64,000 bases of DNA from Escherichia coli (GCF_001677475.2 NZ_CP015229.1); one strand, 5' to 3'. Counted from the stretch's first letter, positions 45,003-64,000 are shown. Translations and numbers: made by a program. Notes: a model not told the origin generated them from the letters alone.

Positions 45003-46112
45003 TTAGACCGCGCGGAAGGAAATCTCGCCAGGAATGACTTCACCCTGCCAATAAAGCTGGGCAGCAACGCGGTCAGCCAGCTGGCGGTAGATAGCGGTAA
45101 ATTCGCTCTCCGGACGGCTGATAACCGTTGGCGTGCCTTTATCGAGATCTTCACGTAAGGAGATGTGTAACGGCATCTGCCCCAGCAACTGCGTGTGGTA
45201 TTTCTCGGCCAGTTTCTCTGCACCACCGGTACCGAAAATCGGTTCATGGTGACCACAGTTACTGCAAATGTGCACACTCATGTTCTCGACAATACCGAGC
45301 ACCGGAACCTCGACTTTCTCGAACATCACAATGCCTTTTTTCGCATCGATCAACGCGATGTCCTGCGGGGTGGTGACCACGACCGCACCAGTTACTGGAA
45401 TGTTTTGTGCCAGTGTCAATTGAATGTCACCGGTGCCTGGCGGCATATCAAGCACCAGATAGTCGAGATCCGGCCACAAGGTTTCCTGCAACATCTGCAT
45501 TAACGCCTTGCTCGCCATCGGACCACGCCACACCATCGCATTGTCGTCAGTGACCAGATAACCAATTGAATTGGTTGCCAGTCCATGAGACATAATCGGT
45601 GCCATATGGGTACCGTCCGGCGAAGTTGGACGCTGATTTTCTGCGCCCAGCATGGTGGGAATTGATGGGCCGTAGATATCGGCGTCCAGAATGCCGACTT
45701 TCGCCCCTTCCGCCGCCAGTGCCAGCGCCAGGTTTACCGCCGTGGAGGATTTACCCACGCCGCCTTTACCTGAGCTGACCGCAATGATGTTCTTCACGCC
45801 GTTAATTCCCGGCTGATTCTTCACGCGTTTTAAGGTGGCGATATTATGCGACAGTTTCCAGTCAATAGCTTTCGCCCCGGTGATACGCAGCAGTTCGGCG
45901 CTACATTGCTCTTTTAACTCTTCGAACGCGCTATGCCAGACGAATGGCATAACCAGTTCCACATGCAACGTGTCGTCCATCCAGGCGACATGGTGCAACG
46001 CTTTCAGCGTGGTGAGGTTATGCTTCAGGGTTGGGTGCTGAAAATTGGCCAGTGTCCCGGCGACCATTGCGCGCAAGGCTTCTGGTGATTTGGCCTGGGA
46101 TTGTTCGTTCAT
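45003..46112 (-). CDS. apbC: Fe-S cluster carrier P-loop ATPase (Mrp/ApbC)
   Basis: Track ORF 45003..46142; ATG at 46112 gives 369 aa starting MNEQSQAKSPEAL; Walker A VSSGKGGVGKSST and CxxC motif. Confidence 0.9.
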   Translation of the reverse strand: MNEQSQAKSPEALRAMVAGTLANFQHPTLKHNLTTLKALHHVAWMDDTLHVELVMPFVWHSAFEELKEQCSAELLRITGAKAIDWKLSHNIATLKRVKNQPGINGVKNIIAVSSGKGGVGKSSTAVNLALALAAEGAKVGILDADIYGPSIPTMLGAENQRPTSPDGTHMAPIMSHGLATNSIGYLVTDDNAMVWRGPMASKALMQMLQETLWPDLDYLVLDMPPGTGDIQLTLAQNIPVTGAVVVTTPQDIALIDAKKGIVMFEKVEVPVLGIVENMSVHICSNCGHHEPIFGTGGAEKLAEKYHTQLLGQMPLHISLREDLDKGTPTVISRPESEFTAIYRQLADRVAAQLYWQGEVIPGEISFRAV

Positions 46113-46243
46113 CCCGACTCCTTTTTTGTATAGATAAACCATCAGCTGATAGTTTACCTGAAGAATATAGAGAAGTACTTACTTAACATTTTCCCATTTG
46201 GTACTATCTAACCCCTTTTCACTATTAAGAAGTAATGCCTACT

Positions 46244-48277
46244 ATGACTCAAGTCGCGAAGAAAATTCTGGTGACGTGCGCACTGCCGTACGCTAACGGC
46301 TCAATCCACCTCGGCCATATGCTGGAGCACATCCAGGCTGATGTCTGGGTCCGTTACCAGCGAATGCGCGGCCACGAGGTCAACTTCATCTGCGCCGACG
46401 ATGCCCACGGCACACCGATCATGCTGAAAGCTCAGCAGCTTGGTATCACTCCGGAGCAGATGATTGGCGAAATGAGTCAGGAGCATCAGACTGATTTCGC
46501 AGGCTTTAACATCAGCTATGACAACTATCACTCAACGCACAGCGAAGAGAACCGCCAGTTGTCAGAACTTATTTATTCTCGCCTGAAAGAAAACGGTTTT
46601 ATTAAAAACCGCACCATCTCTCAGCTGTACGATCCGGAAAAAGGCATGTTCCTGCCGGACCGTTTTGTGAAAGGCACCTGCCCGAAATGTAAATCCCCGG
46701 ATCAATACGGCGATAACTGTGAAGTCTGCGGCGCGACCTACAGCCCGACTGAGCTGATCGAGCCTAAATCGGTGGTTTCTGGTGCTACGCCGGTAATGCG
46801 TGATTCTGAACACTTCTTCTTTGATCTGCCCTCTTTCAGCGAAATGCTGCAGGCATGGACCCGCAGCGGCGCGTTGCAGGAGCAAGTGGCAAACAAAATG
46901 CAGGAGTGGTTTGAATCTGGCCTGCAACAGTGGGATATCTCCCGCGATGCGCCGTACTTCGGTTTTGAAATTCCGAACGCACCGGGCAAATATTTCTACG
47001 TCTGGCTGGATGCGCCGATTGGCTACATGGGTTCTTTCAAGAATCTGTGCGACAAACGCGGCGACACCACCAGCTTCGATGAATACTGGAAGAAAGATTC
47101 CACCGCCGAGCTGTACCACTTCATCGGTAAAGATATCGTTTACTTCCACAGCCTGTTCTGGCCTGCCATGCTGGAAGGCAGCAACTTCCGCAAGCCGACC
47201 AACCTGTTTGTTCATGGCTATGTGACGGTGAACGGCGCGAAGATGTCCAAGTCTCGCGGCACCTTTATTAAAGCCAGCACCTGGCTGAATCATTTTGACG
47301 CTGACAGCCTGCGTTACTACTACACTGCGAAACTCTCTTCGCGCATTGATGATATCGATCTCAACCTGGAAGATTTCGTTCAGCGTGTGAATGCCGATAT
47401 CGTGAATAAAGTGGTTAACCTGGCCTCCCGTAACGCTGGCTTTATCAACAAGCGTTTTGACGGCGTGCTGGCAAGCGAACTGGCTGACCCGCAGTTGTAC
47501 AAAACCTTCACGGATGCCGCTGAAGTGATTGGTGAAGCATGGGAAAGCCGCGAATTTGGTAAAGCAGTGCGCGAAATTATGGCGCTGGCTGATCTGGCTA
47601 ACCGCTATGTCGATGAACAGGCTCCGTGGGTGGTGGCGAAACAGGAAGGCCGCGATGCCGACCTGCAGGCAATTTGTTCGATGGGCATCAACCTGTTCCG
47701 CGTGCTGATGACTTACCTGAAGCCGGTACTGCCGAAACTGACCGAGCGTGCAGAAGCATTCCTCAATACAGAACTGACCTGGCATGGTATCCAGCAACCG
47801 CTGCTGGCGCATAAAGTGAATCCGTTCAAGGCACTGTATAACCGTATCGATATGAAACAGGTGGAAGCACTGGTGGAAGCATCCAAAGAAGAAGTGAAAG
47901 CCACAGCCGCACCGGTAACTGGCCCACTGGCTGACGACCCGATTCAGGAAACCATCACCTTTGACGACTTCGCCAAAGTTGACCTGCGTGTGGCGCTGAT
48001 TGAAAACGCGGAGTTTGTTGAAGGCTCTGACAAACTGCTGCGTCTGACACTGGATCTCGGTGGTGAAAAGCGTAATGTCTTCTCAGGCATCCGTTCTGCT
48101 TATCCAGACCCACAGGCACTGATTGGTCGTCACACCATTATGGTGGCCAACCTGGCACCACGTAAAATGCGCTTCGGTATCTCCGAAGGCATGGTGATGG
48201 CTGCCGGTCCTGGCGGGAAAGATATCTTCCTGCTAAGCCCGGATGCCGGTGCTAAACCGGGTCATCAGGTGAAATAA
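46244..48277 (+). CDS. metG: Methionyl-tRNA synthetase
   Basis: Track ORF 46235..48277; ATG at 46244 gives 677 aa starting [19 protein letters not shown] with HIGH (HLGH) and KMSKS motifs. Confidence 0.95.
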
Positions 48278-48287
48278 TCTCCTTTCA

Positions 48288-48316
48288 AGGCGCTGTATCG
48301 ACAGCGCCTTTTCTTT
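48288..48316 (+). terminator. Rho-independent terminator of metG
   Basis: Stem aggcgctg/cagcgcct with 6-nt loop followed by tttctttat, immediately after the metG stop. Confidence 0.7.
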
Positions 48317-48417
48317 ATAAATTCCTAAAGTTGTTTTCTTGCGATTTTGTCTCTCTCTAACCCGCATAAATACTGGTAGCATCTGCATTCAACTGGATAA
48401 AATTACAGGGATGCAGA

Positions 48418-51400
48418 ATGAGACACTTTATCTTTCAGGACGAAAAATCACATAAATTCTGGGCGGTGGAGCAGCAGGGAAACGAGCTGCATATCAACTG
48501 GGGAAAAGTCGGCACCAACGGGCAAAGTCAGGTAAAAAGCTTTGCTGATGCTGCGGCGGCGGAAAAAGCGGAACTGAAGTTGATTGCGGAGAAGATTAAG
48601 AAGGGGTATGTGGATGATGGTTCGCCAGAAACCATCATAAACTCTCCGATATCAAGCACAGTTTCAGTACAAGAGTTAGCAATATCAACAGGAAACTTCA
48701 CAACGACTGAAACGGCACAGCCACAAGCGATGCCCACGTTGGAAACGCCGCCCTGGCTGAAGAACGGTGAGTCAATTGTTATTTTTGCCAATGCTGAACC
48801 CGCGCCGTTTAGCCATCGTCACTTGATTAATGATCCTCTGGACATTGTTGATAAAGATGGCTTCTTCTGGATACAACTAAAAGAGTACCCATATTGGGCA
48901 GCATTTTACCTTGCCTGTCTGCAAAAGTTCGATGTCAGCCAATGCCAGTCAGAATGGCAATTGGCGTTACAGGAAACTATTTCGCGCATCCAGAAATTAC
49001 AGCAAGACGGATCGTTGCTTTCCGACGTCATATTGACACTGACAAGATTAATTATCGGCCGCCCCGGTCGCCCTCATACATGGCTGGATAGCATAGTGCA
49101 ACTGCGAGGCCTTGAGTATGCCACTGAGTTAGTTATCGCTATGCAGCATGTACAAATGACTGACGACGCAAATACCGATCCTACAAAAAATGCCACTTTA
49201 AAACTTCATTACAATAGTCTTTTTAGTGCGCTGAGAAGAGGGGAAATGGCAGACAATTATTATCTACCTGTAGTAAGCCTTAGCCACGATATTTCCGACA
49301 TGCGCTACAAATATGGATTCAGCGACGAAATAGAGTTACGTTTACGAGAACACCTTTCGCACACAGATGAGGAAACCTGGCAACGCTGTGCTAATAAACT
49401 CATAGATGCTCTCCCTTCACTGCCTCCCCGCAAACGCCCATTAATTGCTTTTTTGCTACCAGAAAAACCAGATATTGCCAATCAGATAGCCCTGGAAATT
49501 GCCCCTATGCATGATTACCCAGAGATTGAGTGGCTTTCCCTTGTCACAACTGACCCGCAAGCAACGTGTCTGCTGAAGAATTTCCATCAACTTGAACTCA
49601 CAACGGGATGGGGAGGCGATATGACGAATCGTTGTATTAAAACCCTACTGCGTGAACAAGGTCTTAATGCCCTGTCACGTCTGCAAGAGGGAGTTAACGA
49701 TAGTTATCCTGTCAGACACGCACTTCAGGAAATTAACCATCCTGATGTCGTTACGTTGTTTATCAAAGAGGAATGTGCCATAGGTGTCGAAATTTCGGCT
49801 TCGAAGTACCCAGAATCGGCGCTTTATGCCCTTACTGCAGCTTTGCTTAGTGCTAAAAATCTGAGGTATTCTCGCCTGATGGAACGAATTGTATTAGGTA
49901 ATGCTCAAACCTTGCGTAATACAATGCCCTGGTTGAGTGAGGAACAGAAACAACTTTTATTCAGTTATTTTCCTCAACTTCATGCTAAAGAAGAGATAGC
50001 CAATGCTTGTGAGTTACCCGGTATATTAACTAATCCAATTTGGCTGAAGAAAAAGAATAAATCCGCCACGACGATATTTACATTACCCGTATTGCCTCTG
50101 GAGTCCATTGGCCCCAACCCTCAGCCACAACCCGAAGCAGAAATACCTTCTACTGCTGAAGTCTTACGCCACCTGGGATTCAGTAGTGGAGCATTTGAAG
50201 AGAATAATCCTGATCCAGAAAGATTCGATATTAAATGGGGCGTAACCAAAACGGCCATTCGTCTTCTGGAAACGGAAGATTATGAATCGTTGTTAAATAC
50301 CCGACCAAAGTATGATTATGAAGGTTTTATTACCTTTTATGTATCCATACTCACTCGTCTACCAGCAGAGAAAGCGCTCTCAATCTGGAATGGACTCTCA
50401 CACATGCACCTCGTGGGTGCTGAGAAAGTGGTTGAGCGATTTGGTCTATCTACGGTACCGGGTCTGTTGCGTTATGCCCTGGTAAACCCTAAGGAGGCGG
50501 TTCCCCTGGCAGCACAATTCGGTGCAACTGAAGTTGCCCTGCTGATGGCCCGCGCATTTTGCCAGTTAAAATCCGTACGAGATGTCGCCGAATATTGGCT
50601 CACCACCTACCCGGAACATGCCATTACCGGGCTGCTGCCTATTGCGCTGGGTAAACCAGTTAAAGAACAACAAGATGCCCGGATGACATTACGCTACCTG
50701 GTCAATAATGGTCATCTCGCGTTGCTGAAAAAAATTGCCAGCCGTTACCAACAACCTGAGGTAATAACTGCACTTACCGACTTTTTAGCAGCAGATCCGC
50801 TGGAAAACTATCCACAGAAAATCGCCAAACTCCCTGGGTGGTGTTCACCAGAAGTATGGCACCGCCCGCTTCTGCGCAGTAACGGCAAGGCACTTTCAGA
50901 TTCAGCCATCCTGCACCTGTGCACCATGCTCTCTTTTCCCCGCGAAGCCACCCTTTACCCAGGGATAACACAGGTAATCAAGGCCTGTACTCCGCAATCT
51001 CTTGCCGATTTCGCCTGGGATCTCTTCCTCAGTTGGGAATCTGCCAGTGGCTCCGCTAAAGATAACTGGGCATTTACCGCACTGGGGATTCTGGGCAACG
51101 ATGACACCGCCCGCAAACTCACCCCGCTCATCCGCGCCTGGCCGGGGGAATCTCAGCATAAACGCGCCACTGTCGGGCTGGATATTCTTGCTGCTATCGG
51201 CAGCGATATCGCCCTGATGCAGCTTAACGGCATCGCGCAAAAGCTAAAATTTAAAGCCTTGCAGGATCAGGCAAGAGTTAAAATCGCCCAGATTGCCGAA
51301 AGCCGCCAACTCACCGTCGCAGAAATGGAAGACCGGTTAGCGCCGGATCTCGGACTGGATGATAACGGCTCACTACTGCTGGATTTCGGCCCACGCCAGT

Positions 51401-52254
51401 TCACCGTCAGCTTTGATGAATCCTTAAAACCGTTTGTGCGCGATGCTTCCGGCAGCCGCCTGAAAGACCTGCCCAAACCGAACAAAAGCGATGATGAAAC
51501 ACTGGCTGAGGAAGCGGTAAATCGCTACAAGTTGTTGAAAAAAGATGTCCGCACGGTGGCAGCGCAACAAATTTCGCGTCTGGAAGCCGCCATGTGTCAG
51601 CGTCGCCGCTGGACAGCAGAACAGTTCCGCCTGTTTCTGGTTGAGCATCCCCTGGTACGTCATATCACCCAACGTCTGATGTGGGGCGTATACGATGCAG
51701 ATAATCAGCTTATCACCTGTTTTCGCGTGGCGGAGGATGGCAGTTTTAGCGACGGTCAGGATAACCCGTTAACCCCTGCGCAGGGTAGCATCGGTATCCC
51801 GCATGTGCTGGAAATCCCGGCCCCGCAGGCGGCTGAATTTGCTCAACTGTTTTCTGACTACGAACTCCTGCCACCGTTCCGTCAACTCGATCGCCCCTGG
51901 TCTCAGCTCTCTGATTCAGAAAAAAACAGCAACGATTTGCAGCGCTGGGCTGGTCGCCAGGCACCAAGTGGGCGCGTCGCCGGGCTGATGAATAAAGGCT
52001 GGCAACGGGGCGATGTGCTGGATGGTGGCGGCTATTACTCATTTTATAAAGCTGTGGATGATGGCTACGTCGAACTGAGTGTGACACCCGGCTTCAGTGT
52101 TGGATTACCCGTCACCGAAATCAGCGCCAGCCAAAAAATTGAGCACATTCAGTTGTGCAAACTGACGCCGCACAAATCGGTTTATCCCTTCTCCGTGCTC
52201 GACGACATCACCGCCAGCGAACTCATTAACGATATTGAATCACTGTTTGATTAA
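48418..52254 (+). CDS. molR: Giant WGR-domain/DUF4132-type protein, paralog 1 (molR-like), 1278 aa
   Basis: Uninterrupted 1278-aa ORF; N-terminal ~60 aa has WGR-domain character (KFWAVEQQGNELHINWGKVGTNGQSQ); C-terminal ~350 aa conserved with paralogs 2 and 3. Symbol from memory of the K-12 locus after metG. Confidence 0.75.
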   Translation: MRHFIFQDEKSHKFWAVEQQGNELHINWGKVGTNGQSQVKSFADAAAAEKAELKLIAEKIKKGYVDDGSPETIINSPISSTVSVQELAISTGNFTTTETAQPQAMPTLETPPWLKNGESIVIFANAEPAPFSHRHLINDPLDIVDKDGFFWIQLKEYPYWAAFYLACLQKFDVSQCQSEWQLALQETISRIQKLQQDGSLLSDVILTLTRLIIGRPGRPHTWLDSIVQLRGLEYATELVIAMQHVQMTDDANTDPTKNATLKLHYNSLFSALRRGEMADNYYLPVVSLSHDISDMRYKYGFSDEIELRLREHLSHTDEETWQRCANKLIDALPSLPPRKRPLIAFLLPEKPDIANQIALEIAPMHDYPEIEWLSLVTTDPQATCLLKNFHQLELTTGWGGDMTNRCIKTLLREQGLNALSRLQEGVNDSYPVRHALQEINHPDVVTLFIKEECAIGVEISASKYPESALYALTAALLSAKNLRYSRLMERIVLGNAQTLRNTMPWLSEEQKQLLFSYFPQLHAKEEIANACELPGILTNPIWLKKKNKSATTIFTLPVLPLESIGPNPQPQPEAEIPSTAEVLRHLGFSSGAFEENNPDPERFDIKWGVTKTAIRLLETEDYESLLNTRPKYDYEGFITFYVSILTRLPAEKALSIWNGLSHMHLVGAEKVVERFGLSTVPGLLRYALVNPKEAVPLAAQFGATEVALLMARAFCQLKSVRDVAEYWLTTYPEHAITGLLPIALGKPVKEQQDARMTLRYLVNNGHLALLKKIASRYQQPEVITALTDFLAADPLENYPQKIAKLPGWCSPEVWHRPLLRSNGKALSDSAILHLCTMLSFPREATLYPGITQVIKACTPQSLADFAWDLFLSWESASGSAKDNWAFTALGILGNDDTARKLTPLIRAWPGESQHKRATVGLDILAAIGSDIALMQLNGIAQKLKFKALQDQARVKIAQIAESRQLTVAEMEDRLAPDLGLDDNGSLLLDFGPRQFTVSFDESLKPFVRDASGSRLKDLPKPNKSDDETLAEEAVNRYKLLKKDVRTVAAQQISRLEAAMCQRRRWTAEQFRLFLVEHPLVRHITQRLMWGVYDADNQLITCFRVAEDGSFSDGQDNPLTPAQGSIGIPHVLEIPAPQAAEFAQLFSDYELLPPFRQLDRPWSQLSDSEKNSNDLQRWAGRQAPSGRVAGLMNKGWQRGDVLDGGGYYSFYKAVDDGYVELSVTPGFSVGLPVTEISASQKIEHIQLCKLTPHKSVYPFSVLDDITASELINDIESLFD

Positions 52255-52266
52255 AAGGATTTAGCA

Positions 52267-55200
52267 ATGAAAACCTATATTTATCAGGACGAAAAATCAC
52301 ATAAATTCTGGGCGGTGGAGCAGCAAGACAACGAGCTGCATATTAGCTGGGGTAAAGTCGGTACTAACGGGCAAAGTCAGGTAAAAAGCTTTGCTGATGC
52401 TGCGGCGGCGGAAAAAGCGGAACTGAAGTTGATTGCGGAGAAAACAAAAAAGGGCTACGTAGAAGAAGTATCCGTGATAACACCGACATCTGTCCCCGTC
52501 CAGGTTATCGAATGCCCCGAAATAGCCCCTTTGCCACAAGACAAACCAGTATTTGTTGGAGACAACCTCCCCTGGCTGGCAGACGACGCCCAAATCATTT
52601 TACCGACAGAGGTTGCGCCAACCACACTAAGTCATCGACGCTGGCCTGGCGATCCTGTGCCACAGGAGAATGAATTAACTCTGCTACGCTCCGTCGCCGC
52701 GAATACTCACCGACGTTTTAAAAAGGTGATCACCTTCGATTACAGCACCTGTTCACTGGACTGGCAGCAGGCGATAACACAAGCAGTGGGCCTTATCGAC
52801 TCGCCGATTAGCACCACGCTACCACCGATGGTTCTGGCGGTACTGGTTGCGCTGGAACAAGGCTTCAATCGTAACGATCACGAAGAGTTAATGGATCAAA
52901 TTGTCCAGGAAGGTGGTCTGGAATATGCCACTGAGGTTGTCATTGCACTACAATTCATCCGCTTCGACTGGGATTATGATGCCCATCTTATTACGTTCAC
53001 CCCGGATGACAGGCAGCCTGGCTATCTGTTGCGCTTTGCCTCGGTTGAAATGCGCCTGCGCAAGCATTTCTCACTTGCAAATGACGATGTATGGCAGCGC
53101 TGCGCCGACAAACTGATTGCCGCTCTCGGAAACATGCCCGCCTGGCACCAGCCGCTGGTTGCACTATTGTTGCCGGAAAAACCAGAAGTAGCTCATGAGA
53201 TTGCCAGACATTTTTGCGGGCAAAAAGGGTTATATGCGCTGGAATGGCTAAAACTGACGGTCACCGATGCTCAGGTATTAGCAGACCTGGAAAAATACTA
53301 TCCAGGACAGCCTGGGCAGGTATTTGATGATTACTATGGCGGTAACATCTGGTGTGCGACAGCACTCCAGGAGCAAGGAGTCACTGCGCTGGCCCGTTTT
53401 GCCCATTACGCTACTGGTGACACATGTGGTGAAGTGTTGATGCATATCAACCACCCGCAGGCACTTACACTACTTATCCATGCAAGCGAGCAAGGAAAGC
53501 GTTGCCACGATCGCATGACAAAGGCTTTCGTTCGCTTCCCACACGCAGCGCTGGCGGCATTAGCAGAACTTCTGGCACAAAAAGATGAAAAGCGCTGGCG
53601 CATGATGCTAATGACGATGCTTATCTCGCAACCGGCACTAGCAGAACAGGTCACTCCCTGGCTCTCAACCCCCGCAGTTGCAGTGCTGAAATCATGCCAG
53701 CAACAACTGACACAGCCCTCAAACCATGCCAGCGCCGATCTACTGCCAGCCATATTAGTCTCACCGCCCTGGCTTTCGAAAAAGAAAAAATCTGTAATGC
53801 CGGTATTGGATTTAACGCCATTACCGCTGGAGTCATGCTGCACATTGACCGAGACGGCAGAAAAAGAGATTCATGCAAGGCATCGCTGGCACGCACATCA
53901 AATAGACGTCGGCCAAAAAGAGGATATTCAGAACTACCTGACACGTCTGGGTTTCAATCGCTGGAATAATGGCCAGTATATGAAAGCGTCTGATGCTGTT
54001 GTAGAACTCTGGCAGAGGGGAGATTATTCTGCGCTAATCAGCGAATTTAAAACCTTCTGGCACTCCTATCAACGGGAATGGCAGCTTTACATGTTAGCCG
54101 CCCTGCCTATCGAAAAAACAGCGCAGGCGTGGAATGTCCTCAGTAAAGAGCCACACGTCGGTGTCGAGTTTGTCATGACGCACCTGCAACTCGCTGGGTT
54201 ACAGGGTTTTATTCACTCCTTTTCACGCTATCCACAAGAAGCTCTGCCTGTAGCACAATATTTTGCGGCTATCGAATTAGCGCCACTGATCGCCCGCGCC
54301 TTCAACAAACTCAAAACCCTACGACAAGACGCCCGCACCTGGCTGCTGAAATACCCGGAACACGCCATTACCGGCCTGCTACCTTCGGCGCTCGGCAAAG
54401 CCGGTGAAGCACAGGATAACGCCCGCGCTGCCTTGCGTATGCTTACCGAAAACGGTCATCAGCCATTACTGCAAGAAATCGCCCGGCGTTATAACCAGCC
54501 GGAAGTAACAGATGCGGTGAACGCTCTGCTTGCGCTCGATCCCTTAGATAATCACCCGACAAAAATCCCCACTCTTCCGGCCTTTTATCAGCCATCGCTC
54601 TGGACGCGCCCGGTATTAAAAGCAAATGCCCAATCACTGCCAGATAGCGCCCTCCTACGCCTCGGCGAAATGCTCCGCTTCCCTCAGGAAGAGGCACTGT
54701 ATCCGGGATTATTGCAGGTGAAAGCCGCCTGTACCGCCGACTCACTGGCTGAATTTGCCTGGGATCTGTTTACCGCCTGGCAGACCGCTGGCGCACCGTC
54801 GAAAGAAAGCTGGGCGTTCACTGCGTTAGGTGTTCTCGGCAACGATGACACCGCCCGCAAACTGACGCCTTTGATTCGCGCCTGGCCTGGTGAATCCCAG
54901 CATAAACGCGCCACCGTCGGGCTGGATATTCTCGCTGCTATCGGTAGTGATATCGCCCTGATGCAGCTTAACGGGATCGCCCAGAAACTGAAATTCAAAG
55001 CATTACAGGAGCGGGCAAAAGAAAAAATTGCCGACATTGCCGAGAGTCGCGAACTGACGGTAGCGGAGCTTGAAGATCGGTTAGCACCGGATCTCGGTCT
55101 GGATGATAACGGTTCGCTGCTGCTGGATTTTGGCCCACGGCAGTTCGCCGTCAGCTTTGATGAAACCTTAAAACCGTTTGTGCGCGATGTTTCCGGCAGC

Positions 55201-56028
55201 CGCCTGAAAGACTTACCTAAACCCAATAAAAGCGATGATGAATCACAGGCGAACGATGCTGTTAACCGCTACAAATTGCTGAAAAAAGATGCGCGTACCG
55301 TCGCCGCCCAGCAGGTAGCAAGGCTGGAATCCGCCATGTGCCTGCGCCGCCGCTGGTCGCCGGAAAACTTTCAGCTCTTCCTGGTTGAGCATCCGCTGGT
55401 TCGTCACTTAACCCGCCGTCTGATTTGGGGCGTTTATAGCGCCGAAAACGAGCTACTGGCTTGCTTTCGCGTGGCGGAAGATAACAGCTACAGCACCACA
55501 GACGATGATCTTTTCACCCTGCCGGAAGGCGATATCTCTGTTGGTATTCCTCACGTTCTGGAAATATCACCCACGGATGCCGCTGCCTTTGGTCAGCTTT
55601 TTGCCGACTACGAACTGTTACCGCCGTTCCGCCAGCTTGACCGCAACAGTTACGCGCTGACAGAAGCCGAACGCAACGCCAGTGAACTGTCCCGCTGGGC
55701 CGGCAGAAAATGTCCGAGCGGTCGAGTAATGGGGCTGGCGAATAAAGGCTGGATGCGTGGTGAACCGCAGGACGGTGGCTGGATCAGCTGGATGATCAAA
55801 CCTCTGGGCCGCTGGTCGTTAATTATGGAAATCGATGAAGGTTTTGCGGTCGGCATGTCGCCAGCCGAACTGAGTGCCGAGCAACTCTTAAGCAAGGTGT
55901 GGCTATGGAAAGGCAAAGCAGAAAACTATGGCTGGAGGAGTTATTCAACACAGGAAGCGCAGTTCTCCGTACTCGATGACATCACCGCCAGCGAGCTGAT
56001 TAGCGATATTGAATCTCTGTTTGAATAA
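52267..56028 (+). CDS. Giant WGR-domain/DUF4132-type protein, paralog 2, 1253 aa
   Basis: Uninterrupted 1253-aa ORF 12 nt downstream of paralog 1, with near-identical N-terminal WGR segment and conserved C-terminal region. Confidence 0.75.
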   Translation: MKTYIYQDEKSHKFWAVEQQDNELHISWGKVGTNGQSQVKSFADAAAAEKAELKLIAEKTKKGYVEEVSVITPTSVPVQVIECPEIAPLPQDKPVFVGDNLPWLADDAQIILPTEVAPTTLSHRRWPGDPVPQENELTLLRSVAANTHRRFKKVITFDYSTCSLDWQQAITQAVGLIDSPISTTLPPMVLAVLVALEQGFNRNDHEELMDQIVQEGGLEYATEVVIALQFIRFDWDYDAHLITFTPDDRQPGYLLRFASVEMRLRKHFSLANDDVWQRCADKLIAALGNMPAWHQPLVALLLPEKPEVAHEIARHFCGQKGLYALEWLKLTVTDAQVLADLEKYYPGQPGQVFDDYYGGNIWCATALQEQGVTALARFAHYATGDTCGEVLMHINHPQALTLLIHASEQGKRCHDRMTKAFVRFPHAALAALAELLAQKDEKRWRMMLMTMLISQPALAEQVTPWLSTPAVAVLKSCQQQLTQPSNHASADLLPAILVSPPWLSKKKKSVMPVLDLTPLPLESCCTLTETAEKEIHARHRWHAHQIDVGQKEDIQNYLTRLGFNRWNNGQYMKASDAVVELWQRGDYSALISEFKTFWHSYQREWQLYMLAALPIEKTAQAWNVLSKEPHVGVEFVMTHLQLAGLQGFIHSFSRYPQEALPVAQYFAAIELAPLIARAFNKLKTLRQDARTWLLKYPEHAITGLLPSALGKAGEAQDNARAALRMLTENGHQPLLQEIARRYNQPEVTDAVNALLALDPLDNHPTKIPTLPAFYQPSLWTRPVLKANAQSLPDSALLRLGEMLRFPQEEALYPGLLQVKAACTADSLAEFAWDLFTAWQTAGAPSKESWAFTALGVLGNDDTARKLTPLIRAWPGESQHKRATVGLDILAAIGSDIALMQLNGIAQKLKFKALQERAKEKIADIAESRELTVAELEDRLAPDLGLDDNGSLLLDFGPRQFAVSFDETLKPFVRDVSGSRLKDLPKPNKSDDESQANDAVNRYKLLKKDARTVAAQQVARLESAMCLRRRWSPENFQLFLVEHPLVRHLTRRLIWGVYSAENELLACFRVAEDNSYSTTDDDLFTLPEGDISVGIPHVLEISPTDAAAFGQLFADYELLPPFRQLDRNSYALTEAERNASELSRWAGRKCPSGRVMGLANKGWMRGEPQDGGWISWMIKPLGRWSLIMEIDEGFAVGMSPAELSAEQLLSKVWLWKGKAENYGWRSYSTQEAQFSVLDDITASELISDIESLFE

Positions 56029-56037
56029 GGAAATAAC

Positions 56038-59000
56038 ATGAACAAGGAATTACCGTGGCTGGCGGATAACGCACAACTGGAACTGAAATATAAAAAAGGC
56101 AAAACGCCGCTCAGCCATCGCAGTTGGCCGGGCGAACCGGTGCCTGTTATTACTGAAAGCCTCATCCAGACACTGGGTGATGAATTGCTACAAAAAGCTG
56201 AGAAGAAAAAAAACATTATCTGGCGTTATGAAAATTTTTCACTGGAGTAGCAGTCCGCCATCACGGAAGCCATCAACTTGATTGGCGAACACAAACCCTC
56301 AATTCCGGCACGGACAATGGCGGCGCTAGTCTGTATCGCGCAAAAGGACAGCCAACAGTTGCTCGACGAAATCGTCCAACAAGAGGGACTGGAATATGCG
56401 ACTGAGGTGGTGATTGCACGCCAGTTTATTACACGATGTTATGAGAGTGATCCTCTGCTAGTGACATTGCAGTATCAGAACGAGGACTATGGCTATGGTT
56501 ATCGCTCAGAAACCTATAACGAATTCGATCTGCGACTGCGTAAGCATCTCTCTCTGGCAGAGGAAAGCTGCTGGCAGCGTTGCGCCGACAAACTCATTGC
56601 CGCACTGCCAGGAATACCCAAAATTCGCCGTCCTTTTATTGCGCTGGTCCTCCCGGAAAAACCAGAAATAGCCAATGAGTTGGTAGGTCTTGAATGCCCG
56701 CGGACTCATTTTCATTCTAAGGAGTGGTTAAAAGCTGTTGCTACTGCCCCCCGGGCGGTGAGAAAACTCGAACACTACTGGAGCCAGGATATATTTAGCG
56801 ATCGCGAAGCCAGCTACATGTCGCATGAAAACCGCTTCGGGTACGCGGCCTGCGCCGCCCTTTTGCGTGAACAAGGACTGGCAGCCGTTCCGCGCCTGGC
56901 AATGTATGCCCATAGAGAGGATTGCGGAAGCCTGCTGGTACAAATTAACCATCCGCAGGTCATCCGCACCTTGCTGTTAGTTGCTGATAAAAACAAACCC
57001 AGCCTGCAACGTGTGGCTAAATACAGTAAAAATTTCCCCCACGCGACACTCGCCGCACTGGCAGAACTGCTGGCGCTAAAAGAACCACCTGCGCGTCCTG
57101 GTTATCCAATCATCGAAGACAAAAAGCTGCCTGCACAGCAAAAAGCACGTGATGAATACTGGCGTACGCTGTTACAAACGCTGATGGCATCGCAGCCACA
57201 ACTGGCAGAAGAGGTGATGCCGTGGTTAAGTACTCAAGCCCGGTCAGTGCTGAATAGTTATTTATCGGCACCGCCTAAAACGGTTATTGATAGCACCGAT
57301 AACAGCCAAATGCCTGAAATCCTCGTTTCACCACCGTGGCGTAGTAAGAAAAAAATGACAGTTCCACGTCTTGATTTGGCACCGTTCGAATTAACGCCGC
57401 AAGTTTACTGGAAACCAGGCGAACGAGAGAGGCTTGCCGCCACTGAGTCTGCCCGTTATTTCAGTACGGAATCTCTTGCGGAACGCATGGAACATAAAAG
57501 TGGACGAGTTGTACTACAGGAGCTGGGTTTTGGAGATGATGTATGGCTGTTTTTGAATTATATACTCCCCGGAAAACTGGATGCTGCACGCAATTCACTC
57601 ATTGTTCAGTGGCATTACTACCCAGGGCGGGTTGAAGAGATCATGAATGGCTGGAGCTCCCCGGAAGCTCAATTAGCAGAACAGGCGCTTCGCAGCGGTC
57701 ACGTAGAAGTGTTAATTAACATATGGGAAAATGACAGCTACTCACGCTATCGTCGGGAAAAGAGTATCTGGAACCTGTATTTATTGGCGCAGTTGCCGCG
57801 TGAGATGGCTTTGACTTTCTGGCTACGTATCAATGAGAAAAAGCATCTGTCTGCGGGTGAGGACTATTTTCTCAGTATCTTCGGATTGGATGCTCTACTA
57901 GGTCTGCTGTTGGCTTTTTCACATCGTCCAAAAGAAACATTTCCGTTAATTTTAAATTTCGGCGCAACCGAACTAGCCCTGCCCGTTGCCCGCGTCTGGC
58001 GACGTTTCGCGGCGCAGCGTGATCTGGCCCGCCAGTGGATTTTACAATGGCCGGAACATACGGCTACTGCACTTATCCCTCTTGTCTTCACCAAATCCAG
58101 CGATAATAGCGAAGCTGCATTACTTGCCCTGCGTTTACTTTACGAACAGGGACATGGCGAGTTACTGCAAACCGTGGCAAACCGCTGGCAGCGTACAGAT
58201 GTATGGCCTGCCCTGGAGCAATTACTTAAACAGAGTCCAATAGAGATTTACCCGACACGCATTCCAAAAGCCCCTGATTTCTGGCAGCCGGCAATGTGGT
58301 CCAGGCCGCGCCTTATCACGAATAATCAACCTGTTACTGATGACGCTCTGGAAATTATCGGCGAAATGCTGCGCTTTACCCAGGGCGGACGTTTTTATAG
58401 CGGACTGGAACAGCTGAAAACGTTTTGCCAGCCGCAAACGCTGGCAGCCTTTGCCTGGGATCTTTTCACCGCGTGGCAACAAGCTGGTGCTCCCGCAAAA
58501 GACAACTGGGCATTTCTGGCGTTAAGTCTCTTTGGCGACGAAAGCACGGCACGGGATCTGACGACACAGATCCTTGCCTGGCCACAGGAAGGCAAATCTG
58601 CCCGTGCTGTCAGTGGTCTGAATATACTTACTCAGATGAATAATGATATGGCACTGATACAGTTGCATCATATATCGCAACGGGCGAAATCCCGCCCCTT
58701 ACGTGATAACGCGGCGGAATTTCTTCAGGTGGTCGCAGAAAATCGCGGGCTAAGCCAGGAACAGTTAGCGGACAGATTAGTCCCAACACTGGGTCTTGAT
58801 GATCCGCAGGCGTTGATTTTTGATTTTGGTCCACGGCAATTTACCGTTCGCTTCGATGAAAACCTTAACCCGGTTATCTTTGATCAGCAAAACGTTCGCC
58901 AGAAAAGCGTTCCCCGGTTGCGCGCCGATGACGATCAACTGAAAGCACCCGAGGCACTGGCCCGACTAAAAGGGCTAAAAAAAGATGCCACTCAGGTGAG

Positions 59001-59670
59001 CAAAAACCTGCTCCCGCGTCTTGAAACTGCCCTGCGCACCACCCGACGCTGGTCGCTGGCAGATTTTCATTCTCTGTTTGTTAATCATCCCTTTACCCGC
59101 CTGGTTACTCGGCGATTGATATGGGGTGTTTATCCGGCAAATGAACCGCGTCGTTTACTCAACGCCTTTCGTGTGGCCGCTGAGGGGGAGTTCTGCAATG
59201 CGCAAGATGAGCCAATTGACCTGCCTGCCGATGCTCTGATTGGCATTGCCCACCCGTTAGAAATGGCAGCAGAAATGCGCAGTGAATTTGCACAGCTTTT
59301 TGCCGATTACGAAATTATGCCGCCTTTTCGCCAGTTGGCACGGCGCACAGTGCTGCTCACGCCTGACGAGTCAGCCAGTAATAGTTTGAATCGCTGGGAA
59401 GGTAAATCTGCTACCGTTGGGCAACTTATGGGAATGCGATACAAAGGCTGGGAGTCAGGCTATGAGAACGCATTTGTCTATGACCTGGGCGAGTACCGGC
59501 TGGTCCTTAAGTTTTCATCCGGTTTTAACCACTACAATGTTGATAGCAAAGCGCTAATGAGCTTCCGTTCTCTTCATGTATACCGTGAGAATAAATCTGT
59601 CACTTTTGCCGAACTTGATGTGTTTGATTTGAGTGAAGCGTTAAGCGCACCCGACGTTATTTTCCATTAA
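56038..59670 (+). pseudogene. yehI: yehI-like DUF4132 paralog 3 with in-frame amber codon at 56248..56250
   Basis: Track ORFs 56038..56250 and 56278..59670 are in the same frame, separated only by TAG (..ENFSLE*QSAITEAINLIGEH..). The full span is 1210 codons plus stop. Lacks the WGR N-terminal module of paralogs 1 and 2. Confidence 0.75.
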
Positions 59671-59730
59671 AACACAGCGGGCAGTGATGCGACTGCCCGT
59701 TATTAACACGACCTGCCACCGGGAAAAGCG

Positions 59731-60051
59731 ATGATCGTGCAAAAAGAGCTGGTCACTATTTACGATTATGAGGCCCCTGTACCTGAAGAGCCGTTTTCCT
59801 TCAGGCTTGAGATCCATAAACGCTCTGAATTATTTACAGGTTCCGTCTATCGACTGGAACGATTCCGGCTACGTCCAACATTTCATCAACGTGATCGAGA
59901 AGATGTCGACCCGCTAATAAATGATGCGTTGATTTATATAAGAGATGAGTTTATTGATGAGCGAAAATTACGAGGTGAATCACCTGAAACTGTAATAGCA
60001 ATTTTTAATCGCGAACTACAAAATATATTCAACCAACAAATAGAAAAATAG
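59731..60051 (+). CDS. yehK: Small protein YehK
   Basis: 106-aa ORF; position after yehI matches the gene order as I recall it. Confidence 0.7.
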   Translation: MIVQKELVTIYDYEAPVPEEPFSFRLEIHKRSELFTGSVYRLERFRLRPTFHQRDREDVDPLINDALIYIRDEFIDERKLRGESPETVIAIFNRELQNIFNQQIEK

Positions 60052-60104
60052 CTTTATTAAAGGGGGAAACGGTATTCCCCCTTAGATGCGTTTCAATTTG
60101 CCCG

Positions 60105-60194
60105 TTACTTCAACAAATCAATCAACCGTAACAGAGCCACTAATAGCTCCAGTACAGCAATGAGCACGGTTAACTTTTGTGTCAGCGTGTCCAT
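60105..60194 (-). CDS. Candidate 29-aa hydrophobic/amphipathic peptide (MDTLTQKLTVLIAVLELLVALLRLIDLLK)
   Basis: Minus-strand ATG at 60194 preceded by AAGGAG with 5-nt spacing; 29 codons then TAA. Not in the track (below 60 aa). Composition resembles small membrane peptides and type I toxins. Confidence 0.4.
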   Translation of the reverse strand: MDTLTQKLTVLIAVLELLVALLRLIDLLK

Positions 60195-60490
60195 CCGCTC
60201 TCCTTATTAAGGAGCGCAATACCAGCACCTTACCCTTACACTGCCTGTCGATACTGGTTTACGTATGTTGGACCACGATGTTGCACTCCGGATCAGGGCA
60301 CCACCTGCAGCACCACCCGTCCGGTAGCCAGGACTTAAAATTGGTCCGATCCGGCGCAACGTCCCAACCGTCTGGATTATAAATCTCATTATCTTAATTG
60401 CAACGGGGTCCACCGATGGTTATAATTCGTTCGTTGGAACACGATGTTGCACAGGCTGCGGTGTTGGGCCTGAAAATAGTAAATAAAAGA

Positions 60491-60516
60491 ACCTGCCTCA
60501 CCAGCAGGTTTTTTTA
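60491..60516 (+). terminator. Rho-independent terminator on the plus strand upstream of yehL
   Basis: Stem acctgc/gcaggt with 7-nt loop followed by ttttttt (60510-60516); implies a plus-strand transcript ending here with no annotated gene. Confidence 0.6.
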
Positions 60517-60626
60517 TTTACTGTGATCTGCTTTCCAGATATTTTTCGCTCAAACAACTAATGCGCAAAACATTTATTGCGCGTAAAATATCGTTTATTT
60601 CATTAATACATTTCAGGGATGAATAT

Positions 60627-61715
60627 ATGTCACCGCAGAATAATCATCTGCAGCGTCCGCCTGCCGCTGTGTTATACGCCGATGAACTGGCAAAATTAAA
60701 ACAAAATGATAACGCACCTTGCCCGCCAGGTTGGCAGTTAAGTTTGCCTGCGGCCCGCGCTTTTATCCTTGGCGACGAAGCGCAAAATATTAGCCGTAAA
60801 GTCGTGATCAGTCCCTCCGCTGTCGAACGCATGTTAGTCACTCTCGCTACCGGGCGCGGTTTGATGTTGGTGGGGGAACCTGGCACCGCAAAATCTCTCC
60901 TGTCTGAATTACTGGCGACCGCTATTAGCGGCGATGCCGGGTTAACCATCCAGGGCGGCGCATCTACCACCGAAGATCAAATCAAGTACGGCTGGAACTA
61001 CGCCCTGCTTATCAACCATGGTCCGTCAACGGAAGCGCTGGTCCCTGCCCCGCTTTACCAGGGAATGCGCGACGGCAAAATTGTCCGTTTTGAAGAGATA
61101 ACGCGTACACCGCTGGAAGTACAAGACTGTCTGTTAGGTATGCTTTCTGACAGGGTAATGACGGTGCCGGAACTCACTGGTGAAGCCAGTCAGCTCTATG
61201 CGCGGGAAGGCTTTAATATTATTGCCACTGCCAATACCCGCGATCGCGGCGTCAATGAAATGAGTGCTGCGCTAAAGCGTCGCTTCGATTTTGAAACTGT
61301 CTTTCCGATTATGGATTTCGCCCAGGAGCTGGAACTGGTCGCCAGTGCTTCCGCGCGTTTGCTGGCCCATAGCGGTATTCCGCATAAAGTGCCTGACGCG
61401 GTACTGGAATTACTGGTGCGCACGTTCCGCGATCTGCGTGCCAACGGCGAAAAGAAAACGTCAATGGATACACTGACAGCGATTATGTCCACCGCTGAAG
61501 CCGTTAACGTGGCCCATGCTGTGGGTGTCCGCGCCTGGTTTTTAGCGAATCGCGCGGGGGAGCCTGCCGACCTGGTGGATTGTATTGCCGGAACCATCGT
61601 CAAAGATAACGAAGAAGATCGCGCGCGTCTGCGCCGTTACTTCGAACAGCGCGTCGCCACACATAAAGAAGCTCACTGGCAGGCTTATTATCAAGCTCGC
61701 CACCGCCTGCCGTGA
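60627..61715 (+). CDS. yehL: AAA+ ATPase (MoxR-like)
   Basis: Track ORF 60561..61715; ATG at 60627 gives 362 aa starting MSPQNNHLQRPPAAVLYADELAKL; Walker A LVGEPGTAKS. Confidence 0.8.
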   Translation: MSPQNNHLQRPPAAVLYADELAKLKQNDNAPCPPGWQLSLPAARAFILGDEAQNISRKVVISPSAVERMLVTLATGRGLMLVGEPGTAKSLLSELLATAISGDAGLTIQGGASTTEDQIKYGWNYALLINHGPSTEALVPAPLYQGMRDGKIVRFEEITRTPLEVQDCLLGMLSDRVMTVPELTGEASQLYAREGFNIIATANTRDRGVNEMSAALKRRFDFETVFPIMDFAQELELVASASARLLAHSGIPHKVPDAVLELLVRTFRDLRANGEKKTSMDTLTAIMSTAEAVNVAHAVGVRAWFLANRAGEPADLVDCIAGTIVKDNEEDRARLRRYFEQRVATHKEAHWQAYYQARHRLP

Positions 61716-61725
61716 GGAAAGATGC

Positions 61726-64000
61726 ATGAGCGAGCCGTTAATTGTCGGCATCCGGCATCATAGTCCGGCCTGCGCCCGGCTGGTGAAATCGTTAATCGAA
61801 AGCCAGCGGCCACGATACGTGTTGATTGAAGGCCCGGCTGATTTTAATGACCGGGTAGACGAACTGTTGTTAGCCCACCAGCTTCCGGTAGCTATTTACA
61901 GTTATTGCCAGTATCAGGACGGTGCGGCCCCCGGGTGTGGTGCCTGGACGCCATTTGCTGAATTTTCGCCAGAGTGGCAGGCGCTACAAGCCGCACGTCG
62001 TATTCAGGCACAAACTTACTTCATCGATTTGCCTTGCTGGGCACAGAGTGAAGAAGAGGACGATTCGCCTGATACGCAAGAGGAAAGCCAGACCTTGCTG
62101 CTGCGTGCCACCCGCATGGATAACAGCGATACCCTGTGGGATCACTTGTTCGAAGATGAAAGCCAGCAAACTGCATTACCCTCTGCGCTGGTGCACTATT
62201 TTGCCCAACTGCGGGGCGACTCCCCCGGAGATGCTCTCAATCGTCAGCGTGAAGCCTTTATGGCCCGCTGGATTTCATGGGCGATGCAGCAAAATAATGG
62301 CGACGTGTTAGTTGTCTGCGGAGGCTGGCACGCTCCGGCACTGGCAAAAATGTGGCGCGAATGCCCGCAGGAAATTAACACGCCAGAATTGCCCTCGCTG
62401 GCAGATGCCGTTACAGGTTGTTATCTCACACCCTACAGTGAAAAGCGCCTTGATGTGCTGGCAGGATACCTTTCAGGAATGCCTGCCCCGGTCTGGCAAA
62501 ACTGGTGCTGGCGGTGGGGCTTGCAGCAGGCAGGTGAACAACTGCTGAAAACGGTTCTTACCCATTTGCGCCAGCACCACTTGCCTGCTTCAACAGCGGA
62601 TATGGCTGCCGCTCATCTACATGCGATGGCACTGGCACAGTTGCGTGGTCATACACTACCGTTACGCACTGACTGGCTGGATGCCATAGCAGGCTCGCTG
62701 ATTAAAGAAGCCCTGAATGCGCCGTTGCCGTGGAGCTATCGCGGCGTTATTCATCCCGATACCGATCCGATTCTGCTAACGTTGATAGACACATTAGCGG
62801 GTGACGGATTCGGTAAACTTGCCCCTTCTACGCCACAACCGCCTCTGCCAAAAGATGTCACCTGCGAACTGGAACGTACAGGAATCTCTTTTCCGGCGGA
62901 GCTTACCTTAAATCGCTTTACCCCCGATGGACTGGCGCAAAGTCAGGTGTTACATCGGCTGGCAATACTGGAGATCCCAGGGATTGTGCGCCAGCAGGGA
63001 AGTACACTGACACTTGCAGGCAACGGTGAAGAACACTGGAAATTAACCCGCCCGCTTAGCCAGCATGCGGCATTGATTGAGGCCGCATGCTTTGGTGCCA
63101 CACTCCAGGAAGCCGCACGCCATAAATTAGAAGCCGATATGCTGGACGCGGGTGGAATCGGCAGTATCACCACATGTCTTAGCCAGGCGGCGTTAGCGGG
63201 TCTGGCGTCCTTCAGTCAACAATTACTGGAGCAACTCACATTATTAATCGCCCAGGAAAATCAATTTGCCGAAATGGGCCAGGCGCTGGAAGTGCTATAT
63301 GCCTTATGGCGGCTGGATGAAATTAGCGGTATGCAAGGCGCGCAGATATTACAAACGACGTTATGCGCGGCTATCGATCGCACGCTGTGGCTGTGTGAAT
63401 CTAACGGCAGACCAGATGAAAAGGAGTTTCACGCTCACCTGCATAGCTGGCAGGCGCTTTGCCATATCCTGCGCGATCTACATAGCGGCGTTAATTTACC
63501 CGGCGTTTCTCTTTCTGCGGCGGTAGCCTTACTGGAGCGCCGCAGTCAGGCGATTCATGCCCCGGCGCTGGATCGCGGCGCGGCTCTTGGCGCACTGATG
63601 CGTCTGGAACATCCCAACGCCAGTGCCGAAGCGGCGCTGACGATGCTGGCGCAGTTATCCCCGACACAGTCCGGCGAGGCGCTGCACGGTTTGCTGGCAT
63701 TAGCCCGTCATCAACTGGCCTGTCAGCCGGCATTTATCGCCGGTTTCAGTAGTCATTTAAATCAACGGAGTGACGACGATTTTATTAACGCCCTGCCCGA
63801 TTTACGCGCGGCGATGGCCTGGCTACCACCACGAGAACGCGGGACGCTGGCGCATCAGGTGCTTGAGCATTACCAGCTCGCACAGCTTCCCGTTTCAGCG
63901 CTGCAAATGCCGTTGCATTGTCCACCGCAAGCCATTGCACATCATCAACAACTCGAACAGCAGGCACTGGCATCGCTGCAACACTGGGGAGTTTTCCATG
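61726..64000 (+). CDS. yehM: Large uncharacterised protein YehM (3' end beyond window)
   Basis: ATG at 61726, 11 nt after the yehL stop; frame 1 is open to the window end, so the gene is absent from the track. Begins MSEPLIVGIRHHSPACARLVKSLIE. Confidence 0.7.
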   Translation, partial: MSEPLIVGIRHHSPACARLVKSLIESQRPRYVLIEGPADFNDRVDELLLAHQLPVAIYSYCQYQDGAAPGCGAWTPFAEFSPEWQALQAARRIQAQTYFIDLPCWAQSEEEDDSPDTQEESQTLLLRATRMDNSDTLWDHLFEDESQQTALPSALVHYFAQLRGDSPGDALNRQREAFMARWISWAMQQNNGDVLVVCGGWHAPALAKMWRECPQEINTPELPSLADAVTGCYLTPYSEKRLDVLAGYLSGMPAPVWQNWCWRWGLQQAGEQLLKTVLTHLRQHHLPASTADMAAAHLHAMALAQLRGHTLPLRTDWLDAIAGSLIKEALNAPLPWSYRGVIHPDTDPILLTLIDTLAGDGFGKLAPSTPQPPLPKDVTCELERTGISFPAELTLNRFTPDGLAQSQVLHRLAILEIPGIVRQQGSTLTLAGNGEEHWKLTRPLSQHAALIEAACFGATLQEAARHKLEADMLDAGGIGSITTCLSQAALAGLASFSQQLLEQLTLLIAQENQFAEMGQALEVLYALWRLDEISGMQGAQILQTTLCAAIDRTLWLCESNGRPDEKEFHAHLHSWQALCHILRDLHSGVNLPGVSLSAAVALLERRSQAIHAPALDRGAALGALMRLEHPNASAEAALTMLAQLSPTQSGEALHGLLALARHQLACQPAFIAGFSSHLNQRSDDDFINALPDLRAAMAWLPPRERGTLAHQVLEHYQLAQLPVSALQMPLHCPPQAIAHHQQLEQQALASLQHWGVFH

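Follow-up and report, generated by a model that had tools for sequence, protein, structure and literature searches.

Why should two neighbouring genes be identical over part of their 5' ends and diverged over most of their length? The question is raised by a 64,000-nucleotide (nt) stretch of Escherichia coli DNA (GCF_001677475.2, NZ_CP015229.1; hereafter 'the window'), in which three tandem plus-strand paralogues, termed P1, P2, and P3/yehI, lie downstream of metG (46235-48277). An initial annotation of this DNA noted a difference-free tract shared by P1 and P2 and suggested recent gene conversion or nucleotide-level constraint on top of an older duplication. We consider it very likely that homologous recombination left this tract behind as a scar in a tandem WGR-DUF4132 gene array that runs from metG to yehK and varies in copy number.

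P1 and P2 are exactly identical over 77 nt (48517-48593 in P1, 52366-52442 in P2). This tract had been put at ~76 nt, with coordinates off by 1-2 nt, and the high similarity described for the first ~190 nt of the genes corresponds to 89% identity over 201 nt. Sliding Nei-Gojobori estimates on a codon alignment show that silent divergence is non-uniform along the pair. The proportion of synonymous differences (pS) is 0.22-0.27 in codons 1-59 (0.25-0.31 in the sliding estimates for codons 1-60) and ~0.75-0.79, which is saturated, in codons 60-800 and most of the gene. Among 590 degenerate codons that encode the same amino acid in both genes, the longest stretch without a difference spans 25 codons (34-58), a length matched in 0 of 5000 shuffles. 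The observation is real and far beyond chance. An older duplication beneath the recombination is also borne out, with paralogue bodies synonymously saturated and the WGR block not.

Low synonymous divergence (dS) between P1 and P2 is found at more places than the 5' end alone. A second patch (51358-51477 in P1, 55102-55221 in P2) has a pS of 0.27 between P1 and P2, compared with 0.60-0.80 against Klebsiella and Erwinia, and pS is 0.36 in the last 21 codons. The C-terminal region described as rich in synonymous differences is indeed so when 51058, the correct register, is paired with 54802 and not with 54790: 179 of 213 nt then agree, and the differences comprise 28 synonymous and 6 non-synonymous changes (pS 0.55; proportion of non-synonymous differences, pN, 0.04).

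Copies in this and other arrays were sorted into cassette types from the central 2 kb of each copy. P1 is type B and P2 is type C; further types are C2 (a partly C-like intermediate, G3X16_2), D, and E, and type A is the first copy after metG in every sampled array that has it. The features of the window on which the argument depends are as follows.

48418-52254, plus strand: P1, 1278 amino acids (aa), with WGR, alpha-solenoid, and DUF4132 (from the open reading frame (ORF), Pfam, and mosaic sites).
52267-56028, plus strand: P2, 1253 aa, a type C cassette (from the ORF and Pfam).
56038-59670, plus strand: P3 (yehI), WGR-less, with DUF4132 as its sole Pfam domain and an in-frame TAG at 56248-56250.
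48418-48516, plus strand: type A 'first-copy' head of P1, continuous with the metG-P1 intergenic region.
48435-48476, plus strand: P1 side of a 42-nt exact match to 52284-52325 in P2.
48517-48593, plus strand: P1 side of the 77-nt exact tract, read as the right end of an upstream junction repeat, J1.
52366-52442, plus strand: P2 side of the 77-nt exact tract.
48594-50817, plus strand: type B variable body of P1 (alpha-solenoid region).
50818-52442, plus strand: junction repeat J2, comprising the P1 beta 3' module, a 12-nt spacer, and the P2 WGR block; the corresponding unit undergoes homogenisation in sister arrays.
52255-52266, plus strand: the P1-P2 spacer, AAGGATTTAGCA (12 nt), with the ribosome-binding site AAGGA.
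51358-51477, plus strand: the second low-dS patch, which pairs with 55102-55221 and codes for the LDFGPRQF core of the conserved C-terminal region.
52189-52254, plus strand: final 66 nt of P1, which share 89% identity with the 3' end of P2 (55963-56028).

The initial annotation had called for copy number to be compared across E. coli genomes, including the molR pseudogene of K-12 (older names yehG/yehH), and array size does vary. Among sampled genomes, the metG-yehK interval contains two to six genes, namely yehI and between one and five WGR-bearing copies. K-12 has one hybrid pseudogene, molR, and yehI. The type B centre is rare: of 5426 complete E. coli genomes, 2 have it at full length, and the type B 3' module occurs in 13. 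The spacer AAGGATTTAGCA is unchanged between all internal copies examined. The largest array seen is that of GF4-3 (locus L002, 2147-20983), with five WGR-DUF4132 copies plus yehI and a stated order of A, D, B, C, yehI.

The GF4-3 and MB53 arrays bear directly on how the 5' identity arises. In both genomes, the D-to-B and B-to-C junctions match from ~1400 nt ahead of the start codon, across the spacer, and as far as nt +168 or +176 of the downstream gene, such that the type B body is bordered by ~1.6-kb direct repeats. Over positions -900 to -1, the junction repeats differ at 9 and 7 sites within a genome versus 33-36 between the two genomes, and the WGR block at these junctions differs at 1 and 5 sites within a genome versus 8-12 between genomes. 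The four junction repeats are closer within than between genomes and therefore group by genome, not by position; they show concerted evolution. The B and C orthologues in GF4-3 are identical over nt 1-168, but with a haplotype that differs from the window's. Arrays of the order A-D-C-yehI (6EVA, USMARC-49610) resemble the corresponding form without B. We also observed an identical run of 196 same-amino-acid codons at the 3' ends of the GF4-3 D and B copies.

Orthologous cassettes show the converse pattern. Between P1 and MB53 copy 1, dS is 0.28 in the 5' block and 0.055 in the body; between Ecol_316 copy 1 and G3X16 copy 1, the corresponding values are 0.60 and 0.11. Overall, orthologous cassettes have a dS of 0.27-0.60 in the 5' block versus 0.03-0.40 in the body. 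This greater divergence of the 5' block indicates that it is uncoupled from the body that it precedes. The four-gamete test fails in 181 of 435 pairs of sites in the WGR block. When all pairs of copies are taken together, the mean number of WGR-block differences is no different within genomes (14.6) and between genomes (14.4), because type A blocks stay distinct. The within-genome signal is limited to the internal copies and the junction repeat.

Other arrays preserve both a parent-like form and the product of a crossover. UTME-7 and 6EVA have identical MetG, YehI, and YehK proteins, and UTME-7 has one copy fewer. In copy 1 of UTME-7, 16 informative sites at nt 5-129 are those of 6EVA copy 1 and the next 20, at nt 138-200, are those of 6EVA copy 2; its remainder is 99.6% identical to 6EVA copy 2. 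A single 3.8-kb deletion separates the two loci (L077, 8616-12355 in UTME-7; L076, 4796-12355 in 6EVA), and the crossover falls at nt 130-137 of the WGR block. UTME-7 is thus a clean crossover product of a 6EVA-like array. The molR pseudogene of K-12/DH1 (L005, 7912-11707) has a type A WGR block to ~nt 161 and a C2 body from ~nt 165, with the switch at ~nt 162-164. molR is thus a crossover hybrid as well, and its form is what loss of the first copy from a 2016C-3878-like array would be expected to produce. K_EC180 is a further hybrid.

P1 has a similar composite structure. Codons 1-6 of P1 encode MRHFIF, the first-copy type, and internal copies encode MKTYIY. The informative sites of P1 at nt 5-96 side with the first copies of Ecol_316 and K_EC180 and not with P2 (the exception is nt 57, in Ecol_316_1), and the metG-P1 intergenic region together with P1 nt 1-99 is 99.2% identical to K_EC180. 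Informative sites at nt 129-171 side with P2, and the B body begins at nt 177. On this evidence P1 is itself a chimera of a first-copy head, a P2-like WGR tract, a rare type B body, and a beta 3' module.

These observations are best explained by repeated homologous recombination at the shared homology block of the array, presumably by a RecA-dependent pathway. The repeat unit begins in the last ~1.4 kb of one gene, crosses the 12-nt spacer, and takes in the first ~176 nt (WGR) of the internal copy that follows. Two processes operate on this unit. First, gene conversion homogenises repeat copies within a genome, producing concerted evolution. Second, unequal crossovers in the WGR block delete or add whole cassettes and leave hybrid genes behind.

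For the window, we infer the order and date of events, and their enzymology, along the following lines. The WGR block of a type B copy would first have become homogenised with the one in P2, the next gene downstream, a condition that GF4-3 and MB53 still show. An unequal crossover between A and B in nt 97-128 would then have removed the A body and any copies between, leaving an A head (nt 1 to ~99), a P2-identical tract (nt 100-176), and a B body. The 77-nt tract would be the surviving right end of the upstream junction repeat, with its left edge marking the crossover junction; on this proposed history, identity stops at nt 176 because homology stops there. The suggestion of gene conversion is therefore upheld in the broad sense of recombination between the copies. 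The tract is, however, more than an isolated, simple conversion patch: its left edge fits an unequal-crossover junction and its right edge coincides with the end of homology.

Several observations weigh against an exchange between P1 and P2 in this genome, or against a uniform process. First, the haplotype of the P1 tract is also that of Ecol_316 copy 2, and the P1 orthologues in MB53 and GF4-3 are each 4 nt away from it. B-C pairs drawn from different genomes differ at 0-6 of 77 nt (mean 3.3), against which the 0 differences in the window are only weakly unusual (Poisson P = 0.036). Across strains there is little diversity in the pool of internal-copy WGR blocks, and exact identity therefore gives only P ~0.04 for an event in this genome. 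Second, the 8 differences between P1 and P2 over nt 18-176 are on a par with the between-genome mean of 8.7; with type B copies in three genomes only, the within/between comparison of B-C pairs has very low power. Third, type A WGR blocks differ from those of internal copies at 11-24 sites within a genome, and homogenisation is not uniform because this first-copy block stays distinct. Finally, Klebsiella oxytoca paralogues show little 5' homogenisation (pS 0.61). A recombination event between the copies stands, and its being 'recent' in this genome, as first proposed, is weakly shown.

The same observations lend themselves to an explanation in which the P1 and P2 tracts are both a common, population-wide WGR haplotype imported from other strains, with no exchange from P2 to P1 in this genome. 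Besides the match to Ecol_316 copy 2 and the small average difference between B-C pairs of different genomes, the movement of cassette bodies between strains favours this explanation. P1 48594-50317 is 99.7% identical to copy 1 of MB53 (poultry, Cuba; this genome has no metG at the array locus), and P2 52366-53566 is 99.8% identical to copy 2 of Ecol_316 (human, Puerto Rico). Identity of the window's metG and yehLM to the sampled E. coli loci is 95-97% (95-96.5% for metG). The higher identity of the cassette bodies than of the flanks indicates that cassettes move between strains and have been exchanged recently. The breakpoints in cassette identity are sharp and lie at the edge of the WGR block. 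An imported haplotype would, however, still require recombination between paralogues somewhere, since cassette bodies are saturated, and so differs from the preferred history only in the place and time of the exchange. Within-genome homogenisation of the junction repeat is also seen directly in GF4-3 and MB53. We regard a purely imported haplotype as quite unlikely, and recombination within the array as the better account of the tract.

The initial annotation also raised nucleotide-level constraint, under which the 5' tract would be an RNA element, a regulatory element, or a translation-initiation signal kept at the DNA level. The data point away from this. Across 11 arrays with 23 WGR-bearing copies, the 77-nt tract shows 0-14 differences, and 26 of its sites are polymorphic among E. 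coli copies; the single copy in K-12 differs at 11 of 77 nt, so that the tract is not an element conserved in single-copy orthologues. Codons 21-59 are saturated in comparisons with Klebsiella and Erwinia (pS 0.75-0.86), as is the gene elsewhere. Within the WGR block, nt 18-59 (the 42-nt run) are the least polymorphic, with variation at 6 of 42 sites among 21 E. coli copies, and one K. oxytoca copy has no synonymous difference in codons 5-20; these are the points in favour of constraint. Codons 5-20, however, contain only ~7 synonymous sites, and in comparisons across genera their pS lies anywhere between 0 and 0.82, without a consistent trend. A scan of 46000-62000 against Rfam matched only the OrzO-P antitoxin RNA at 60440-60515 and nothing in P1 or P2. 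The predicted RNA folds of the two identical tracts and of the P1/P2 junction are unremarkable (z -0.44, +0.72, and +0.36). A conserved RNA or regulatory element in the 77-nt tract was rejected on these grounds, and we hold functional nucleotide constraint to be very improbable.

Equally improbable is that purifying selection on the protein, together with codon bias, explains the low 5' divergence without recombination. In favour of this explanation, only one part of the family is more conserved than the WGR domain (53% mean pairwise identity among 58 homologues). Protein-level purifying selection does not, however, reduce dS, and a C-terminal block with 100% amino-acid identity still has a pS of 0.42-0.55. 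The WGR region is saturated across genera, and orthologues diverge more in the 5' block than in the body. An assembly artefact, in which repeat collapse or chimeric assembly created the identical tract, is negligibly probable given that both ORFs are intact and that the same architecture, with longer identical tracts (168 nt; ~1.6-kb junction repeats), is present in several independent complete genomes.

The divergent central region of P1 and P2 had been likened to that of diversifying paralogue families. The profile itself holds, and it is family-wide: a conserved WGR domain, a variable region from ~aa 60 to 650, and a conserved C-terminal third are common to 58 homologues from many phyla. 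The ratio of non-synonymous to synonymous divergence (dN/dS) between orthologous cassettes is 0.13-0.42 across codons 60-800. All pairwise values are below 1 and thus give no sign of positive selection between whole cassettes, a pairwise measure and not a site-wise test. Diversifying selection on the central region is accordingly not supported by these ratios. The low dN/dS and the family-wide profile together indicate that the central diversity is old and under purifying selection. Variation in the array comes from cassette content and recombination, not from demonstrable rapid point change.

A confident AlphaFold2 model of P2 aa 60-1253 (predicted local distance difference test 88, predicted template modelling score 0.74) consists of an alpha-solenoid followed by an alpha/beta domain. 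A Foldseek search of the PDB with this model returned only generic HEAT/ARM solenoid matches (E >= 1e-3, template modelling score ~0.1). These matches are weak and generic, and therefore point to no functional analogue.

P1 has Pfam matches to WGR at aa 5-68 and to DUF4132 at aa 1012-1195. The WGR domain (Pfam accession PF05406) scores 65.2 bits in P1 and 66.1 bits in P2 (gathering cutoff 22), and yehI is without one. DUF4132 (Pfam accession PF13569) scores 164.9, 177.4, and 163 bits in the three paralogues (gathering cutoff 27). The WGR region (aa 2-71) also matches PDB entry 2ra8 (E = 8.5e-17), and orthologues carry the RefSeq label 'WGR and DUF4132 domain-containing protein'. P1 and P2 sit between metG and yehK/yehL, as in K-12. 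The flanks of the locus have a best identity of 97.5-97.7% to complete E. coli genomes.

The array is followed by yehK, an OrzO-P antitoxin RNA, yehL, and yehM. The OrzO-P match (60440-60515, plus strand) lies in the yehK-yehL gap and is strong (101 bits, E = 3e-16). This gap is ~0.3 to 1.5 kb long depending on the strain. The match marks the zorO/orzO type I toxin-antitoxin locus, which has been reported between yehI and yehL in O157:H7 (PMC2887945).

The yehI gene of the window is probably a pseudogene. Its in-frame TAG at 56248-56250 falls at a position that is Trp in K-12 YehI (LEW becoming LE*), and the ORF restarts at a TTG at 56278. In MB53, Ecol_316, and 8_140198, the annotation likewise gives yehI a frameshift. 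Array copies, yehL, or yehM are pseudogenised in several strains, including O157, K-12, K_EC180, and FDAARGOS_1276.

Chi sites (GCTGGTGG) number 0 within the 11-kb array (48418-59670), and the whole window contains 11, compared with ~2 expected by chance. The absence of Chi from the array is not informative as to stimulation of recombination. The array or its upstream region is also a target for mobile elements. MB53 (L001, 1617-5971) carries IS4-like and IS1 insertions that truncate a copy, and sublineage L1a of sequence type 131 (ST131) carries the blaCTX-M-15 transposon TnMB1860 in the 'metG/DUF4132/yeh region' (PMC9334617).

Homologues occur in Klebsiella, Erwinia, Massilia, Cupriavidus, myxobacteria, actinobacteria, and others, often as tandem arrays, which in Massilia reach five or more copies. 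A YehL homologue lies 3' of the DUF4132 gene or genes on the same strand in 42 of 63 loci across phyla, usually together with YehM, YehP, and YehQ. These neighbours contain AAA_5 (YehL), DUF5682 (YehM), vWA (YehP), and SWIM (YehQ) domains. The DUF4132-YehL-M-P-Q cluster spans many phyla (L011-L073; for example, Massilia L019, L025, and L029-L037) and is also present in Erwinia (L016) and mycobacteria (L038, L054). YehL is 55-76% identical across phyla, and tandem DUF4132 copies number from 1 to at least 5.

Searches for function gave little. At E <= 0.01, none of the PADLOC-DB models matched P1, P2, P3, YehK, or YehL, and NCBIfam gave only sub-threshold matches, with no equivalog that assigns a function. 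A literature search returned nothing on DUF5682 and found DUF4132 only as the region of the ST131 transposon insertion; the literature covered gives no function for either domain. As a tentative and rather unlikely possibility, the array may be a cassette-exchange system, with the WGR block and the 3' junction repeat serving as recombination handles. The swapped alpha-solenoid modules would then be alternative target-recognition or adaptor subunits for a YehL-YehM-YehP-YehQ machine, possibly a conflict/defence or quality-control system.

The process proposed here, homologous recombination in a tandem array, is well known, and we found no published description of it for the WGR-DUF4132 family. 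The tufA/tufB genes of Salmonella and E. coli and the rRNA operons undergo concerted evolution by RecA-dependent gene conversion. As in those systems, segments of paralogues in the array are kept or made identical within a genome, and copies within a genome group together relative to their orthologues. Unlike tufA/tufB, the array is homogenised at the ends only, and ~2 kb of body stays saturated. Its copies are also tandem, so the same homology drives copy-number change and the formation of hybrid genes, and its homogenisation is patchy and mixed with exchange between strains.

Loci of the Rhs/CDI type combine a conserved core with variable tips and orphan cassettes, which are exchanged through recombination in the core. 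The array resembles them in that conserved homology blocks flank diverged cassettes, strains differ through recombination in those blocks, and pseudogenes and fragments are frequent. In contrast to Rhs/CDI loci, the array is without toxin or immunity modules, every unit is a full-length gene conserved at both ends, and the variable part is a central alpha-solenoid, not a C-terminal toxin tip. Nothing points to a competitive function.

Closer to home, P1 and P2 resemble the molR/YehI family in having WGR and DUF4132 above Pfam thresholds and in occupying the same metG-yehK position, but the body of P1 is a rare type B allele, unlike K-12 molR/yehI. The arrangement of one or more DUF4132 genes followed by AAA_5, DUF5682, vWA, and SWIM genes is reminiscent of MoxR-type AAA+/vWA systems (e.g. 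MoxR-vWA ternary, Pfam accession PF20030). Unlike those systems, the match of YehL to bpMoxR is below threshold (E = 0.0013, 18 bits versus a cutoff of 27), and no PADLOC models match.

A striking sequence pattern is thus explained by ordinary recombination and not by a hidden element, and the metG-yehK 'DUF4132 region' of E. coli is a recombination-driven array. For annotation, hybrid and fragmentary copies are to be expected in this region and are not to be mistaken for assembly errors. If the array is indeed a cassette-exchange system, E. coli, and independently Massilia and others, would gain, lose, and swap ancient, diverged alpha-solenoid modules. The finding also points to a widespread five-component system that comprises the WGR-DUF4132 protein or proteins, a MoxR-like AAA+ ATPase, DUF5682, vWA, and SWIM. 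The DUF4132 component is its expanding and varying part, which may offer a concrete entry point for functional work.

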